Of a stretch of DNA of 64,000 nucleotides, positions 3,437 to 14,868 are shown piece after piece (position 1 is the stretch's first letter; every line of letters starts with the position of its first letter). A model generated the notes under the pieces. That model was not told the DNA's origin. It saw only the letters and a program-made list of their open reading frames with translations, and made no database searches. The position numbers and the translations under genes were made by a program. Source of the DNA: Escherichia phage UP19; sequence record OX638288; one strand, given 5' to 3'.

Positions 3437-4027
3437 ATGAACGGTTTATTTAACCAAACTAACACTACCAACTTTATCTTAGAGGTTAGTGACTCAGGAA
3501 TGACGCAGGCATTCAAATTGAACGTACAAGATGTAACACTACCGGGCATCCATATTCCGGTCTCAGACGTCCCAGGATCGACCCAAGGTATAAACCGTGC
3601 TAAACTGCCAGGTTCTACTGTAGAATTCGACCCTTTGATTGTGAACTTTCTTGTAGACCGCGAGTTGAAATCATGGCTGGACGTTTATAAATGGATGCTA
3701 TCATTAAACAACTATGTAACACATGAATCTGAAGCCTGGCATCCTAAAGGTCAGCCTGAGGCTATCACCCTCCACATTCTTGATAACAACAAACAGAAAA
3801 TCGTAATGAGCATTCATTACTACGGTGGTTGGCCATCCGACCTTTCCGAGATTCAGTACTCTTATAAAGAAGATTCCGACCCTGCGATAATCGCTACAGC
3901 AACATTCAACTTCAAATCGTTTGCTGTAGAAATAGATGGTACAATAGTTACAGGTCGTCCACAAATTGATTCGTATGCCGAACAACGTGTGGCTCGTATG
4001 TCTATGCATCCATCTATGAGAAAATAA
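3437..4027 (+). CDS. 3: tail completion / sheath stabilizer gp3
   Basis: 196 aa; synteny between 2 and 1; stop overlaps gene 1 start. Confidence 0.7.
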   Translation: MNGLFNQTNTTNFILEVSDSGMTQAFKLNVQDVTLPGIHIPVSDVPGSTQGINRAKLPGSTVEFDPLIVNFLVDRELKSWLDVYKWMLSLNNYVTHESEAWHPKGQPEAITLHILDNNKQKIVMSIHYYGGWPSDLSEIQYSYKEDSDPAIIATATFNFKSFAVEIDGTIVTGRPQIDSYAEQRVARMSMHPSMRK

Positions 4028-4780
4028 TGAAACTAATATCAATTGTAGGAATCAAACGTAGCGGTAAGGATACCGTTGCTAACTATGTAATTGAGAATAT
4101 GGATTCCGTAAAATTCCAACTCGCCGGTCCTATTAAAAAGTATCTGGCTGAAGCTTATGAATACATATCTGATGACCCTGTATTCGACCGTAGCTATATG
4201 CCTAAACTTGATTTTAACTGTTTTGAAGGTATCGGTTATGACCGTGAAGAAATCATTCCTTTAAAACCATATGATGTTATTGATATTTTTGAAAATGCTA
4301 TTGTTAAGCTGAATAATATCCTTCCTATTCCCGGAATTGATGTTCGTACCGCATATCATTATGGTCTTACCCCGGTCCAATATCTGTCTGAAGAAACAAA
4401 AGACCAGCTATTTGAAGTAATAAATAAAAATAACAATTGGTCAGTACGTCGTCTCATGCAGACCCTTGGGACTGATATTATTGTTAACCAATTTGATAAG
4501 ATGTATTGGGTTAAGTTGTTCGCTTTAGACTATTTTGATAAAATATACTCTGATGCGAAATACTATGTCGTACCTGATGTTCGTCAAACACATGAAATTG
4601 ATTCGCTCAGAGCGATGGGTGCTACGATTATTCATGTAGTTCGCGCTGAAACCGGTCAAGTACAAGACTCGCACATCACTGAAGCGGGTCTACCAATTTT
4701 ACCTGGTGACGTTGTTGTTGAAAATAACGGCACTCTTTCTGAACTATACACTACTATTGATAAATTATTAGGAAATAAAA

Positions 4781-4788
<8 letters not shown>
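4027..4788 (+). CDS. 1: deoxynucleoside monophosphate kinase gp1
   Basis: 253 aa; P-loop VGIKRSGKDT; ...WSVRRLMQTLGTDIIVNQFDKMYWVKLFALDY... like T4 gp1. Confidence 0.9.
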
Positions 4789-5687
<899 letters not shown>

Positions 5688-5698
5688 TTTAAAAAAGG

Positions 5699-5741
5699 TG
5701 TTTACAAGGTCTATAGACATGATACTATAGGCCTATCAAAA
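5699..5741 (+). promoter_or_regulatory. early promoter / stem-loop cassette (PeSL-like)
   Basis: GTTTACA, 16-17 nt spacer, TACTAT, then conserved core tataggcctatcaaaac; member of a repeat family. Confidence 0.6.
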
Positions 5742-5765
5742 CAAACCAACCACATGGAAATCAAA

Positions 5766-5990
5766 ATGAAAACTTATCAAGAATTTATTACAGAAGCTAA
5801 AAAACACGAAGACCAACTGCCGGTTGTTACAAAAACCTTTGACGGTACATTGGCCGATTTTAAAAAAGTCCCTAGTGATAAGCTCGCTAAATTGGCCGGG
5901 AGTATCGGTGAAAAAGATGGCAAGGTCACGTTTTCTGCTCAAGGTACAGCCAATCTTAAAAAACTTTTGAAAGCCGCTGGCGCAGAATAA
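5766..5990 (+). CDS. internal-protein-like protein (CTS MKTYQEFITE)
   Basis: ATG 5766 after SD ggaaa; N-terminus MKTYQEFITEA; position equals T4 ipI locus. Confidence 0.65.
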   Translation: MKTYQEFITEAKKHEDQLPVVTKTFDGTLADFKKVPSDKLAKLAGSIGEKDGKVTFSAQGTANLKKLLKAAGAE

Positions 5991-8085: not shown

Positions 8086-8159
8086 GGCCCTGTAGCTGGA
8101 CGGTCAAGCGAGCGACTCATAATCGCTGGATGGTGGTTCGATTCCACCCAGGGCCACCA
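8086..8159 (+). tRNA. tRNA, anticodon CAU (Met or lysidine-Ile)
   Basis: Perfect 7-bp acceptor stem ggccctg/cagggcc; anticodon arm agcga-ctCATaa-tcgct; T-arm ggtgg-ttcgatt-ccacc; encoded CCA. Confidence 0.75.
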
Positions 8160-8163
8160 ATTT

Positions 8164-8238
8164 GGATGTGTAGCTCAGCGGTAGAGCAGTTGACTGTTAA
8201 TCAATTGGTCCATGGTTCGAATCCATGCATGTCCGCCA
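8164..8238 (+). tRNA. tRNA-Asn (GUU)
   Basis: D-arm gctc-agcggta-gagc; anticodon loop ctGTTaa; T-arm catgg-ttcgaat-ccatg; encoded CCA. Confidence 0.8.
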
Positions 8239-8242
8239 AATA

Positions 8243-8318
8243 CGAGGCATAGCTCAGAAGGAAGAGCAACGGTCTTCTAAACCGTAGGTCGTAGGTTCGA
8301 TCCCTACTGTCTCGACCA
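8243..8318 (+). tRNA. tRNA-Arg (UCU)
   Basis: Anticodon arm acggt-ctTCTaa-accgt; T-arm gtagg-ttcgatc-cctac; encoded CCA; T4 also carries tRNA-Arg(UCU). Confidence 0.8.
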
Positions 8319-10184: not shown

Positions 10185-10221
10185 GTTTACAACCCTCAGA
10201 GGACAGGGTATAATGTCCTCA
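10185..10221 (+). promoter_or_regulatory. sigma70-type early promoter with -10 inside inverted repeat
   Basis: GTTTACA-17 nt-TATAAT; gaggacag/tgtcctc inverted repeat flanks the -10. Confidence 0.6.
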
Positions 10222-11442: not shown

Positions 11443-11782
11443 TCTTTCATCGCATGTTTATCAATTGGCTGAATATGATATTGCTATTTCCTTATTCACG
11501 GGAATTGTCACAGGTATGCTCGGCGGTCTGGTTGGTCTGGTAATGACCACAGTTATGGCTGCAATCGAAGGAGTCATGCCTATTGAGATGGGTTTCTATA
11601 TGATAATCGCTCCGGCTGTCGTGGCTTATTTTATCCCTCTTGTGTATGATATTTGCCATACAAATGCTTTGAATGCTCCCATCCGTAAGAGATATGCTTT
11701 AGAGATGGCTAATTATAATGAGTATGTAAAACAAACCAAACGTAATGACCTTGAAACCTTTATTAAGGAATGTAAATCATGA
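11429..11782 (+). CDS. small membrane protein
   Basis: ATG 11429; 117 aa; two TM helices; ends ...LETFIKECKS. Confidence 0.5.
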   Translation: MERPSLSSHVYQLAEYDIAISLFTGIVTGMLGGLVGLVMTTVMAAIEGVMPIEMGFYMIIAPAVVAYFIPLVYDICHTNALNAPIRKRYALEMANYNEYVKQTKRNDLETFIKECKS

Positions 11783-12069
11783 ATAAAATTGAAATTGAAA
11801 TCCCTGAATACAACGACGAGAAATCTGCAGAAAAAGCTATCTATGCTCTTCTGAATAAAGTAGATACCATCGAACATGAATGTGAAGCTATTGCTGATAA
11901 GTACGGTATTCAATTCGGAACAGGTGATTATGGCTCAGGACGTACATACTACCCTGTTGGTTATGAATGCTCCCAGTGGTTTAAAGATGAAATTGAAAAC
12001 AATGGTGGTGAAGTTGAAAATGGCGTCGTTACAGTTGGTGCCTGGATCTCCTCTTCAGCATTATGCTAA
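11779..12069 (+). CDS. tandem paralog family member A (C-terminal W-x-SSS-x-C)
   Basis: 96 aa ending ...GAWISSSALC; first of five consecutive paralogs. Confidence 0.6.
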   Translation: MNKIEIEIPEYNDEKSAEKAIYALLNKVDTIEHECEAIADKYGIQFGTGDYGSGRTYYPVGYECSQWFKDEIENNGGEVENGVVTVGAWISSSALC

Positions 12070-12078
12070 GGAAACGCT

Positions 12079-12360
12079 ATGATGAATGATAATCATAACC
12101 ACCCAGAGCTTCTGGCCGCAGTAAAAGAAATTCATGAAGCTATTCGTCGTGCCGAGGAAATTGCAGACAAATATGAGACTCATTTTAATATATACCCTGC
12201 TCGCGGTATGGGCGGTGACTATTATTCTCCTGGCGCCCTGAAAGCTGACCTAGCCCACTGGGAAGAAGATGGTCATCCTGAATGGGCTATTGTTAATACT
12301 CATGACTATACAACTGACCTGGAAAATGGTGGTTGGGTGTCCTCTTCTTCTGAATGTTAA
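12079..12360 (+). CDS. tandem paralog family member B
   Basis: 93 aa ending ...GGWVSSSSEC; shares IADKY and GDY motifs with member A. Confidence 0.6.
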   Translation: MMNDNHNHPELLAAVKEIHEAIRRAEEIADKYETHFNIYPARGMGGDYYSPGALKADLAHWEEDGHPEWAIVNTHDYTTDLENGGWVSSSSEC

Positions 12361-12369
12361 GGAAATATT

Positions 12370-12567
12370 ATGTCTCGTGAATTAGATTGTGCAATCCGTA
12401 CTGCCGCCGCGGCTATTGAAAACGTTATCCAGATTTGCAAAGAAGAACGTGAAGAAGCTGATATCTATATCGATGGTGTTCGTGACCTGGAACGACATAT
12501 CACGCTTTACAATGGTTGTATTACAATTAGTGGTACCTCTTGGGTGTCCTCCTCTTACGAATGCTAA
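12370..12567 (+). CDS. tandem paralog family member C
   Basis: 65 aa ending ...TSWVSSSYEC. Confidence 0.6.
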   Translation: MSRELDCAIRTAAAAIENVIQICKEEREEADIYIDGVRDLERHITLYNGCITISGTSWVSSSYEC

Positions 12568-12576
12568 GGTAATAAA

Positions 12577-12789
12577 ATGACTATTGATGAAATTGAAAAA
12601 CAAATCCGTGAATTAGTACGTAAAGGCCAGTCCGTGGCTGATGAAACAGGTGAAGAGTTCCATGTTTCCGGTCGTGGACAATACATTTCTCCAAAGAATC
12701 CGGAATATGATGATTACGAATGGGCCCGTGATGATTACGGTATCCCAGATGGTGAAGGTTTCTGGTTTACATCCTCTATGTCTTGCTAA
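12577..12789 (+). CDS. tandem paralog family member D
   Basis: 70 aa ending ...FWFTSSMSC. Confidence 0.6.
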   Translation: MTIDEIEKQIRELVRKGQSVADETGEEFHVSGRGQYISPKNPEYDDYEWARDDYGIPDGEGFWFTSSMSC

Positions 12790-12798
12790 GGTGATAAA

Positions 12799-13023
12799 AT
12801 GTCTGATATTAATGAATTAGAAAAAGCTGCTCTTGAACTGGCTGCATTGTATAAGAAAGTAAAAGATATGGCTTCTGCTCAAAGTTTTGGTGTTGAGTTA
12901 GACGATTACGATGGTGAAGTTCGTCTTGAAGATTGGTTGAATAGCTCTTGTTACGGCGAAGAAGCTGGTCGCACCTTCGTTGCTCGTTCCGATGGTAAAA
13001 TCTGGTACCCGAGCTCATGCTAA
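12799..13023 (+). CDS. tandem paralog family member E
   Basis: 74 aa ending ...KIWYPSSC. Confidence 0.6.
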   Translation: MSDINELEKAALELAALYKKVKDMASAQSFGVELDDYDGEVRLEDWLNSSCYGEEAGRTFVARSDGKIWYPSSC

Positions 13024-13244
13024 AATTAAAGAAAAGATACATTCGTAAAATAAACGGTCTTCGCGATTATGCCAAAGGTTGGCCATTAAGTATTATTATG
13101 GCTGATAGACACCCACGTTATAATACTGAGATGACCTATTATAAAAAGTATGATTCATATTGTCGGTCTAAAGCAGGTCGTTTAGATGGTTCTTATGAAG
13201 AATATTTTGGCAAAAAACCTACTCGTATTTCGTTAGGAAAATAA
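13017..13244 (+). CDS. hypothetical basic protein
   Basis: 75 aa ORF; start overlaps previous stop. Confidence 0.4.
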   Translation: MLKLKKRYIRKINGLRDYAKGWPLSIIMADRHPRYNTEMTYYKKYDSYCRSKAGRLDGSYEEYFGKKPTRISLGK

Positions 13245-13274
13245 TTTAGCCACATGGACGTGGTAGGAGGACTT

Positions 13275-13604
13275 ATGCACAAAGATTCAGTATTCAAATA
13301 TCTTTTGAAAACAGATAAAGAATTCTATATGAATGGGCAAGCTTTCTTGTTCGTTCGTGGTAAACGTGAGATGTTTTATAAATGCGACCTCTCAATGCAC
13401 CATCACATGTATCATACTCATGGTGAGCCTATACTAGGGTTCTCTGGTGACGAGACTAGACGCATAGCTATGTATTATGACCATTTTAAGCTCAATGACT
13501 GTGGTGACAACGCTTTGGTCTGGAATCCATCTTGGCGTCGTTGGGATACGGTAGACAACGATAAATTATTTTTAGAATATTGCAGAAGTGATGTACAACT
13601 CTAA
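13275..13604 (+). CDS. hypothetical protein
   Basis: ATG 13275 after SD aggagg; 109 aa, His/Cys-rich. Confidence 0.5.
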   Translation: MHKDSVFKYLLKTDKEFYMNGQAFLFVRGKREMFYKCDLSMHHHMYHTHGEPILGFSGDETRRIAMYYDHFKLNDCGDNALVWNPSWRRWDTVDNDKLFLEYCRSDVQL

Positions 13605-13647: not shown

Positions 13648-13887
13648 ATGTGGTATTACTCTCCATTGTCTGATAAGTCTGATGAGCCGGTACGAATTAC
13701 TCGTGCCAAGTTTAAAAAGATTTATGGTTTTGCCTATAAGAAGTCTGATTATGGTGTTCGTTTTGAAGATGCTCACTGTATCAATGACCCTTATACAGAA
13801 GAAATCTCTAATGAGATAATTCCTATCATTAAGAATAATTCTGATGATATGTGGGAATTGCATAACGATTACGTTGCTGAAATTTAA
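13648..13887 (+). CDS. hypothetical protein
   Basis: SD gaggag before ATG; 79 aa. Confidence 0.5.
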   Translation: MWYYSPLSDKSDEPVRITRAKFKKIYGFAYKKSDYGVRFEDAHCINDPYTEEISNEIIPIIKNNSDDMWELHNDYVAEI

Positions 13888-13908: not shown

Positions 13909-14868
13909 ATGATGCTAGTTATTGGTTCTCGTGCACTGCACCATGCAGGTCTGATTGAAAGTAAGTATATAGAAAATTCTGATTGGGATTTCATTGCCGA
14001 CCAAGGCTCGTGGAATCAATTTAAAGCCCGGATGTTCGGTGCTCACGTTCCTGTGGATAATCCAGATGTCCAGGCTTTTAAATGCATGTACAATGGTAAA
14101 GAAACCTATTTTGAAGCTTATATCGTTCGTGCTCTGACTAACGTACGAGAAATTACCGGTGAGCTTCAAGACGAAGATTTCACTTCAAGCTATCGTCTCC
14201 TGAAATATGCTGAAACCCATATTCAAAAGGACCGTCTTACTGGTTTCTATTGGGCAACCCCTGATATCTGTCTGGCTATCAAAATGAGCCATCGTTATTT
14301 GAAGAACAACCCGTTCTTTTTGAAGACGATGTCCCACATCAAATATCTTCGTAATAAAGGTGTAACCTTGAATGAAGAGCTCCAAGAAATCATGTTGCAA
14401 CGTCAGAAAGAAACGTTGAGCTATTCTCATCCTAAATTGGATGTAAACAAATCATCATTCTTTAATGATACCATTTATACGCTAGACCATGACTCTATCC
14501 ACGAAGCTGTGGCATTGGCTGGACGCCCTGCATATACCTTTTATATGAAGGAAGGTTCTGAAGTCATGACCTCACGTGAGAAGTTTGAAGCTTTGCCTGA
14601 AGCTATTAAACTGGCTGGCGTATATGAAGAAACTTGTGTGTTGGCCCTAGAACGTTCACAGGTTCCTAACAACTTTAATATTTCACCGTCATTAAGTTTC
14701 TATATGGCTCTTGAGAAAGTGTGTACCTCAATCACTTCAGGCTGGTTCCGTGAGTATGCCTGGGAAAACTACCAAGCTGTAGTGAATATGTATAAGACCC
14801 TAGGTGAAAATGACTACATCAAGCGGTTCCAAGATAACCATCATTTAATTCGTCCTTTCGAAAAATAA
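13909..14868 (+). CDS. hypothetical protein (319 aa), function unknown
   Basis: Long ORF with SD gaggaaaatatt ATG; no confident family assignment by eye. Confidence 0.6.
   Translation: MMLVIGSRALHHAGLIESKYIENSDWDFIADQGSWNQFKARMFGAHVPVDNPDVQAFKCMYNGKETYFEAYIVRALTNVREITGELQDEDFTSSYRLLKYAETHIQKDRLTGFYWATPDICLAIKMSHRYLKNNPFFLKTMSHIKYLRNKGVTLNEELQEIMLQRQKETLSYSHPKLDVNKSSFFNDTIYTLDHDSIHEAVALAGRPAYTFYMKEGSEVMTSREKFEALPEAIKLAGVYEETCVLALERSQVPNNFNISPSLSFYMALEKVCTSITSGWFREYAWENYQAVVNMYKTLGENDYIKRFQDNHHLIRPFEK

Follow-up and report, generated by a model that had tools for sequence, protein, structure and literature searches.

A tandem array of five small paralogs in Escherichia phage UP19 belongs to a protein family with a conserved C-terminal motif and gene linkage to a predicted nucleotidyltransferase

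Among known pairings of a nucleotidyltransferase with a short regulatory partner, one of the closest to the phage locus reported here is MenAT1 of Mycobacterium tuberculosis, which consists of the toxin MenT1 and the short antitoxin MenA1. It has been shown that MenT enzymes extend tRNA by nucleotides at the acceptor end, and that MenT1 is blocked by MenA1, which is encoded upstream and whose N-terminal helix induces autophosphorylation in the active site of the toxin (PMC10435456; PMC11375011). In the AbiE (AbiEi/AbiEii), MenT3/TglT and MenT4 systems the partners AbiEi and MenA3 are larger proteins, of winged helix-turn-helix or kinase-like type, and AbiE serves as a host defence system. Another group of interest is RlaP (PF10127), phage Pol-beta nucleotidyltransferases that are associated with RNA ligase (PMC7824862; bioRxiv 10.64898/2025.12.29.696909). 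The stretch analysed here is 64,000 nucleotides (nt) of Escherichia phage UP19 (sequence record OX638288), and this 64-kb stretch as a whole is referred to as the window; family scans were made by regular expression (regex) or hidden Markov model (HMM), over six frames where stated. It carries a tandem array of five small paralogous genes, A to E, upstream of a gene for a predicted Pol-beta-type nucleotidyltransferase, and members of the small-protein family accompany this enzyme gene in phages of many lineages.

The array comprises five consecutive open reading frames (ORFs) on the + strand at 11779-13023, of 96, 93, 65, 70 and 74 amino acids (aa), which were confirmed in the ORF list and in the raw sequence. 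In the following lines dN/dS is the ratio of nonsynonymous to synonymous substitution rates, computed against the orthologs in eight related phages:

11779-12069, + strand: paralog A, 96 aa, ending GAWISSSALC; A type, with a GDYGSGRTYYP hairpin; PHROG 899 at E = 1.5e-22, family HMM at E = 1.7e-23; dN/dS 0.04-0.25
12079-12360, + strand: paralog B, 93 aa, ending GGWVSSSSEC; B type, with an RGMGGDYY hairpin; PHROG 899 at E = 3.4e-19; dN/dS 0.05-0.42
12370-12567, + strand: paralog C, 65 aa, ending TSWVSSSYEC; the most divergent of the five; PHROG 4882 at E = 2.4e-36; dN/dS 0-0.22
12577-12789, + strand: paralog D, 70 aa, ending FWFTSSMSC; PHROG 899 at E = 3.3e-14, family HMM at E = 8.4e-19; dN/dS 0.06-0.44
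12799-13023, + strand: paralog E, 74 aa, ending KIWYPSSC, with the motif present twice; PHROG 899 at E = 1.4e-9; dN/dS 0.05-0.15

All five proteins share the C-terminal pattern W-x-[S/T/P]-S-S-(x-x)-C, with the Cys codon directly followed by a TAA stop in each ORF. The register in A to D is W(-8)...S(-5)S(-4)..C, and E has the shortened form W-x-x-S-S-C that is typical of its subtype; its two copies lie internally at residues 46-53 (W46-L-N-S-S-C51-Y-G) and at the terminus at residues 69-74 (W-Y-P-S-S-C74). When A to E were aligned with MAFFT, the invariant columns were M1, one Ala, W, S, S and the terminal C, so that the C-terminal similarity, which might have vanished in a proper alignment, is retained. 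In a six-frame scan of the whole window the motif end was found in these five ORFs alone, and its confinement to five adjacent ORFs of 64 kb places the pattern far beyond chance. An earlier, sequence-only reading of this DNA had proposed five ORFs with a common W-x-SSS-x-C tail, a conserved junction made of Cys codon, TAA, Shine-Dalgarno sequence and ATG, and the segments IADKY and GDY shared by A and B; all of these are present in the sequence.

The junctions themselves follow the layout TG[CT]-TAA-GG(A/T)-...-ATG, with a spacer of 9 nt at 4/4 junctions, and A to E therefore have one reading frame in common; the short spacers had been put at 9-10 nt before, and all four are exactly 9 nt. A repeat search showed that the junction forms a 42-nt direct-repeat family, D1, with four copies at 62-100% identity:

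12043-12084, + strand: junction repeat 1 (A/B), comprising the W..SS..C codons, TAA, the GGA Shine-Dalgarno sequence, the 9-nt spacer and ATG
12334-12375, + strand: junction repeat 2 (B/C), direct-repeat family D1
12541-12582, + strand: junction repeat 3 (C/D), direct-repeat family D1
12763-12804, + strand: junction repeat 4 (D/E), direct-repeat family D1

At each junction TAAGG joins the two genes, the stop codon overlapping the next Shine-Dalgarno sequence, and this overlap suggests that translation of the array is coupled from gene to gene. As the sequence-only reading had proposed, A to E are true tandem paralogs and not pieces of a larger gene: each starts at an ATG behind a Shine-Dalgarno sequence of its own, and they occur as separate ORFs in more than 60 related phages.

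Paralogs A, B, D and E fall in PHROG 899 and C falls in PHROG 4882, and the proteins of these clusters are also found in pVOGs VOG2412-2415. The five proteins are thus already held in public clusters, both PHROGs being labelled unknown function, where C is split from the rest and neither the motif nor the link to an enzyme is recorded. With the family HMM, A, B and D are matched at E-values of about 1e-24 to 1e-19, while profile-profile comparison (hhalign) connects C and E to the family over the helix and the tail, at E = 3.7e-5 and a probability of 71% for C and at E = 4.8e-6 and 86% for E; C is tied to it by hhalign only. In a HMMER search of 1.84 billion cluster representatives at E <= 0.001, the family comprised 541 clusters at 50% identity, nearly all of 60-120 aa and matching to the last residue. 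Tail statistics were taken from the 147 representatives shorter than 200 aa among the 150 matches listed of the 541 clusters. Here the terminal residue is Cys in 136/147, and the Cys-ended representatives have W at -8 in 134/136, Ser at -5 in 135/136 and Ser at -4 in 136/136; the family is acidic, with a median isoelectric point of 4.5 among the listed representatives. The consensus begins with an N-terminal helix, E-A-E-x-I-A-D-x-x-G-x-x-F-x-F and (A)Y-G-M-G-G-T-Y-Y-P, and continues through a variable acidic and aromatic insert to the C-terminal G-x-W-x-S-S-S-x-x-C. When A to E and the small proteins encoded next to them were scanned with Pfam, NCBIfam and PADLOC, nothing rose above noise, and searches of PDB sequences with the family profiles returned designed helical bundles only. 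No Pfam entry, solved structure or literature was found for the small family, and the literature on JS98 and on phage nucleotidyltransferases and tRNA repair held nothing on this array.

The gene to which the family is linked lies 886 nt downstream of E:

13909-14868, + strand: conserved partner gene, 319 aa, with Pfam domains DUF7277 (N-terminal) and DUF7275 (C-terminal, helical)

The predicted fold of its product matches the nucleotidyltransferase toxins MenT1 and MenT3 best, and on this prediction the protein is a Pol-beta-type nucleotidyltransferase with a MenT/AbiEii-like fold and intact catalytic residues. Its signature G6-S7 ... D25-x-D27 (IGSRAL...DWDF) is invariant, and so are K125, H128, D193-H-D195 and the KVCTSITSGWFREYAWENY block across 28 diverse homologs. 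More than 2,600 homologs of the enzyme were found, annotated as hypothetical throughout. Among them are the products of approximately 315 aa encoded downstream of small genes in Otagovirus PE09, Phapecoctavirus ESCO5 and Acinetobacter phage AbTZA1, which are 43-49% identical to the product of 13909-14868 and all carry DUF7277 and DUF7275. A Pfam scan of the enzyme at E <= 1 gave DUF7277 and DUF7275 only, with no match to DUF1814 (PF08843) or PF10127; a profile search of PDB sequences gave noise, with no MenT or AbiEii; and in the literature searched there was no mention of DUF7275 or DUF7277.

Linkage between the two genes was assessed in 80 IMG/VR loci centred on relatives of the enzyme, which were collected with the enzyme alignment. 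At least one family member was found at HMM E <= 1e-3 in 70/80 of these loci, five further loci have weaker matches with a clear tail, and one (L077) has the variant tail W-E-S-S-E-S-S-E-C, so that a family member lies upstream and on the same strand in 76/80 (70 + 5 + 1); one of the four remaining loci ends at a contig edge. There are 1-6 members per locus, all co-oriented, and the median gap from small gene to enzyme start is 374 nt in the regex scan. Reverse look-ups that started from the small proteins gave the same picture, with a DUF7277/DUF7275 gene 0.1-3.4 kb downstream in 6/6 contigs, and PE09, ESCO5 and AbTZA1 likewise carry the enzyme shortly downstream of the small gene. The pair is kept in Tevenvirinae, Twarogvirinae, Aeromonas T4-like phages, Phapecoctavirus, Otagovirus, RSP15-like phages and jumbo-phage contigs. 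When 12 genes of the window in and near the array were compared with the 51 distant loci, A, B, D, E and the enzyme gene were the only ones to recur there; the three ORFs between array and enzyme gene and the e.4-like gene upstream of the array, considered as further parts of the module, were rejected at 0/51. An apparent counter-example, Providencia phage PSTCR6 (MW057858.1), was also set aside, as its enzyme gene crosses the origin of the circular record; the DUF7275 homolog of this phage, 346 aa, is obtained by joining L101 and L102 (joined 3887-4927) and is absent from the deposited annotation.

Compared with the described systems, this module most resembles, by analogy, a nucleotidyltransferase and small partner pair of the MenAT/AbiE type. 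The phage enzyme has a MenT-like predicted fold with hG[GS] and DxD motifs, and differs in having no DUF1814 match and no sequence-level relationship to the MenAT1 toxin. The small proteins show no detectable similarity to MenA1, their W-S-S-C end has no counterpart in MenAT1, and as a family of 60-100 aa they are unrelated to MenA3 and AbiEi. Unlike MenAT1, the module is carried by strictly lytic phages, with 1-6 paralogous copies of the small gene; unlike AbiE, which protects the host, it is phage-borne. Like several DUF7275 genes, RlaP genes are found near RNA ligase and polynucleotide kinase (PNK) genes, but no small W-S-S-C partner has been described for RlaP, and the assignment of the enzyme to RlaP was rejected, since it belongs to a different Pfam family and has no PF10127 match at E <= 1.

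The surroundings of DUF7275 genes in other phages were also recorded. The gene is near RNA ligase 2 and a phosphoesterase in DSS3_VP1, near PNK and RNA ligase in Streptomyces phage Wakanda (L090 1096-1968 and 9545-10192), near Rnl1 and PNKP in L093 (511-3294) and near YqeY in L087 (1643-2071). Further sites with RNA ligase, PNK, phosphoesterase, YqeY or SIR2 neighbours are L092 2265-3810, L005 9224-10024 and the downstream ends of L094 and L096, and tRNA clusters lie near the DUF7275 gene in Gordonia phage Bachita and in the window. These recurring neighbours hint at an RNA/tRNA-repair or NAD-linked conflict context for DUF7275, and the RNA-repair and tRNA genes among them suggest that the enzyme acts on tRNA or RNA 3' ends.

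The reading favoured here, to which we assign a probability of roughly 0.45, is that the small proteins are cognate partners of the enzyme, either as antitoxin-like regulators or as specificity subunits. The small family and the downstream DUF7277/DUF7275 enzyme would then form a two-part module, in which the enzyme would act on tRNA or RNA 3' ends and the small proteins would bind it via their invariant end and N-terminal helix. Such binding would control or redirect its activity, as the short upstream MenA1 does for MenT1, with the W-S-S-C end as a contact or pseudo-substrate element and the paralog subtypes as distinct, non-redundant partners. The sequence-only reading had suggested that the common tail meets a shared partner; that remains plausible, and gene linkage now names the DUF7277/DUF7275 enzyme as the candidate. 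In the E type the motif is duplicated as a unit, as would be expected for a recognition element.

Several observations weigh against cognate partnership. A simple antitoxin model, in which one regulator would suffice, leaves the conservation of five paralogs unaccounted for, and in the window 886 nt with three unrelated ORFs lie between E and the enzyme gene. Loci L029 and L059/L060 have an enzyme with intact motifs and no family member within 6 kb, and the small protein is therefore not an obligatory antidote everywhere. Finally, linkage within T4-like phages is partly inherited synteny.

The AlphaFold2 model of paralog B, which was built from an 11-sequence alignment and is of moderate confidence (predicted local distance difference test, pLDDT, 74.5), shows a small alpha/beta domain with helices at 9-32 and 51-63 and strands at 35-38, 46-49 and 84-88. 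The hairpin (35-38/46-49) is formed by the F-x-F and Y-Y-P segments, the variable insert follows the second helix, and the third strand (84-88) is G-W-V-S, with the last five residues at lower confidence. With G-W-V-S modelled as a strand, the conserved end would therefore be partly a core strand and not a free tail. E-type proteins, in which the whole motif is doubled, suggest that it is also a recognition element. A Foldseek comparison of the B model with the PDB gave nothing at E <= 0.001. The suggestion that the tail is a sorting signal is not borne out, given the modelled position of G-W-V-S in the third beta-strand, and no signal peptide or secretion context was found for the small proteins.

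The dN/dS of A to E is 0.02-0.44 overall, the same range as in neighbouring accessory genes, and each paralog is under purifying selection. The bodies had been called hypervariable, which is true between paralogs (22-30% identity) and does not hold against orthologs (dN/dS < 0.45). Nor is the array rapidly diversifying, as had also been proposed: selection on it is purifying, and the A, B and E subtypes are kept in both Straboviridae and Phapecoctavirus, so the duplications are ancient. In Phapecoctavirus ESCO5 the copies are of A type (GDYGNGETYYP), B type (YGMGG) and E type, the last with a double motif, W-Q-S-S-S-C-Y-G ... W-H-S-S-G-C, as in paralog E. E-type members with the double motif were located at L005 5458-5676, L033 5709-5954 and L068 5432-5677. 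It was also observed that the W-x-x-S-S-C form of E types, without the two-residue spacer before Cys, is conserved from Dhakavirus to Phapecoctavirus. Paralog C is distributed in Dhakavirus/Gaprivervirus-like phages only. The copy number per phage is 1-6, and in L008 (a QL01-like Dhakavirus, 4078-4881) the order is A-B-D with the usual 9-nt spacers and C precisely absent, a loss that fits recombination at the junction repeat, which may mediate the gain and loss of cassettes.

Among other explanations, a somewhat unlikely one is that the small proteins are substrates or carriers: the enzyme would modify a tail Ser, by nucleotidylylation or phosphorylation, or the terminal Cys, and the modified paralogs would become effectors. 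Some Pol-beta-fold enzymes modify small partners, as MNT polyadenylylates HEPN toxins and GlnD uridylylates PII, and CitX and MdcG load a prosthetic group on a Ser of carrier proteins of approximately 100 aa. The HEPN-MNT type VII toxin-antitoxin systems, in which a minimal nucleotidyltransferase lies beside a small partner that becomes covalently nucleotidylylated, are a model for this explanation; they differ in that the enzyme is the antitoxin and much smaller, the partner is a HEPN RNase, and nothing in them matches the small family in sequence or fold. The gene linkage speaks for this explanation as it does for cognate partners, the hydroxyl groups and the thiol of the tail are invariant and keep a fixed distance from each other, and several conserved paralogs suit several substrates better than several regulators. 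Phosphate transfer to a Ser or Thr of the active site is also within the reach of MenT-type enzymes (PMC11375011), but the proteins nearest to the enzyme in structure have tRNA and not protein as their target (PMC10435456), and the B model places the W and the first Ser in a beta-strand instead of a free tail.

It is unlikely that W-x-S-S-S-x-x-C is a docking and acceptor element in one, which is nucleotidylylated or phosphorylated by the enzyme or switches it between tRNA targets, with the paralog subtypes as distinct adaptors. If this were true, the tail would define an unrecognised and widespread protein-modification or toxin-antitoxin-like regulatory system, which lytic phages would use early in infection to manipulate or repair the host tRNA pool.

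Equally unlikely is a stand-alone role of the small proteins as counter-defence or host-takeover factors, for example decoy antitoxins against AbiEii/MenT-like abortive-infection toxins of the host or inhibitors of some other host target, which would share an accessory island with the enzyme gene and not interact with its product. Such a role would suit small acidic genes of early or middle type in the accessory e and tRNA gene region of a T4-like genome, their number of 1-6 copies between phages, the gain or loss of cassette C at a repeat junction, and a weak fold resemblance to the Phd/YefM/RelB antitoxins. However, dN/dS well below 1 and the retention of subtypes across distant phage families are unlike arms-race genes, order and strand relative to the enzyme are kept where no other neighbours are shared, and no PADLOC or anti-defence family was matched.

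Less probable again is that the linkage has no functional meaning, in which case the family would consist of small domains with a structural or nucleic-acid-binding role, W-S-S-C would combine a core strand with a metal or disulfide ligand, and the shared position beside the enzyme gene would be a frozen accident of a block that spread horizontally. The G-W-V-S strand of the B model is in line with this, as are the enzyme genes without a nearby family member and the distant DUF7275 homologs without any; on the other side stand the retention of the pair in 76/80 loci and in all reverse look-ups while other neighbours change, and the loss of both genes together in T4.

A lanthipeptide-like precursor, in which the Ser-rich, Cys-ended tail would be phosphorylated by the neighbouring enzyme and then dehydrated and cyclised in a lanthionine-like manner, with the helix as a long leader, is very improbable. 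This chemistry is that of class II-IV lanthipeptide synthetases. A helical N-terminal part, an S-S-S-x-x-C end and several paralogs beside one enzyme are compatible with it, and MenT-type enzymes can phosphorylate Ser or Thr (PMC11375011); against it, the 'core' is invariant here and the 'leader' variable, whereas combinatorial precursor families that are known show the opposite, the B model predicts the tail to lie within a folded domain, the small proteins gave no Pfam match, and no dehydratase, cyclase, protease or exporter was found among the conserved neighbours, of which the nucleotidyltransferase is the only one kept across lineages.

The sequence-only reading had named as its own alternative that A to E might be the remains of a single larger gene, interrupted by frameshifts. 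This possibility, extended here to stop codons and left by their common frame and their separation by TAA and 9 nt only, is refuted by the Shine-Dalgarno sequence and ATG of each, by each being a complete copy of the same domain and not a consecutive part, by members elsewhere that are stand-alone proteins of 60-120 aa with the domain ending at Cys in 136/147 listed representatives, by the conservation of separate ORFs with dN/dS < 0.45 in dozens of phages, and by there being no long fused homolog among the 150 matches listed of 541 clusters, where the sole long match, to a repeat protein, is spurious. A polyprotein made by read-through of the stop codons was likewise rejected, given the TAA stops, the separate start signals and homologs with other spacings or with overlaps.

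The array itself has been deposited, unremarked, in many genomes, and what is new is the definition of the family, its invariant end, the purifying selection and the link to the enzyme. Hundreds of sequenced lytic phages carry the module, and their hosts include Escherichia, Klebsiella, Acinetobacter, Pseudomonas, Aeromonas and Ralstonia. For annotation, five 'hypothetical proteins' of Dhakavirus, Gaprivervirus and Mosigvirus therapy candidates can be grouped as one family with a named neighbour. In predicted structure the enzyme comes closest to tRNA-modifying toxins by which hosts arrest growth and abort infection, and a phage-borne version with small partners of its own could show how phages keep an enzyme of this kind under control, or in what way they attack, repair or mimic such immunity. 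The invariant terminal Cys and the S-S pair provide a directly testable handle.

With regard to genomic setting, the window belongs to a Dhakavirus (JS98-like). Over the array region, identity to the window is 96% for Escherichia phages dhabil, CLB_P2 and JS98, of the genus Dhakavirus, and approximately 85% for Gaprivervirus SP18, and in the records of all four phages the five genes are annotated 'hypothetical protein'. The array lies between the e.4-like membrane protein gene and e.2, downstream of a tRNA-Met/Asn/Arg cluster (8086-8318). The other features of the region are as follows:

10186-10214, + strand: early-type promoter match, strong, ahead of the e.6-like gene
11693-11719, + strand: candidate T4-type middle (MotA-box) promoter, TATGCTTTA-N12-TATAAT, a perfect consensus match in a pattern scan
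13017-13244, 13254-13604 and 13648-13887, + strand: three small ORFs between the array and the enzyme gene, two of them in PHROG 7065 and PHROG 9796 and the third unassigned; restricted to close relatives

The candidate MotA-box promoter lies 60 nt upstream of gene A, within the 3' end of the e.4-like coding sequence, and is kept at the same offset in 10/15 related loci. A pattern scan found no late promoter motif in the array region, and no terminator-like site was found between 9.8 and 15.5 kb, hence none between the array and the enzyme gene. From these sequence signals, the array and the enzyme gene are probably expressed together as a module, early or in the middle of infection.

In T4 there is no gap between the genes e.4, e.3 and e.2, and so nothing at the position of the array, and the family HMM, the enzyme HMM and the tail pattern found neither a family member nor an enzyme relative in the complete T4 genome, so that the two genes are jointly absent. 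The sequence-only reading had recognised no T4 equivalent, and this is upheld both at the syntenic e.3/e.2 position and elsewhere in the complete genome. T4 nrdC.11 (L098 5435-6445, - strand; GSHLYG...DVDF), which is annotated as a nucleotidyltransferase, is unrelated to DUF7277/DUF7275 by HMM. The Pol-beta enzyme that T4 carries is therefore of another kind, and no part of the module is present in this phage.

An otherwise invariant residue of the enzyme, C272 (KVCTSITSGWF), was considered as a correlate of W-S-S-C partners and rejected, as there is no clean correlation across the aligned homologs. C272 is replaced by Ile or Val in the homologs of nt-1, Wakanda and Bachita, all without W-S-S-C partners, and it is kept in DSS3_VP1, L029 and L059, likewise without them; a link between C272 and the terminal Cys of the partners is thus suggestive but not clean.

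No W-S-S-C member accompanies the distant DUF7275 homologs of Vibrio, Streptomyces, Gordonia and Roseobacter phages. In three of these loci an acidic, Tyr/Trp-rich ORF of approximately 97 aa was observed, which abuts the DUF7275 gene in each: L089 at 4705-5001 (Vibrio phage nt-1 ORF300), L090 at 5645-5944 (Wakanda gp196) and L091 at 5100-5390 (Bachita gp18). These ORFs are weakly alike, with 30% identity over 87 aa between nt-1 and Wakanda, and they may represent a second, unrelated partner family of DUF7275.

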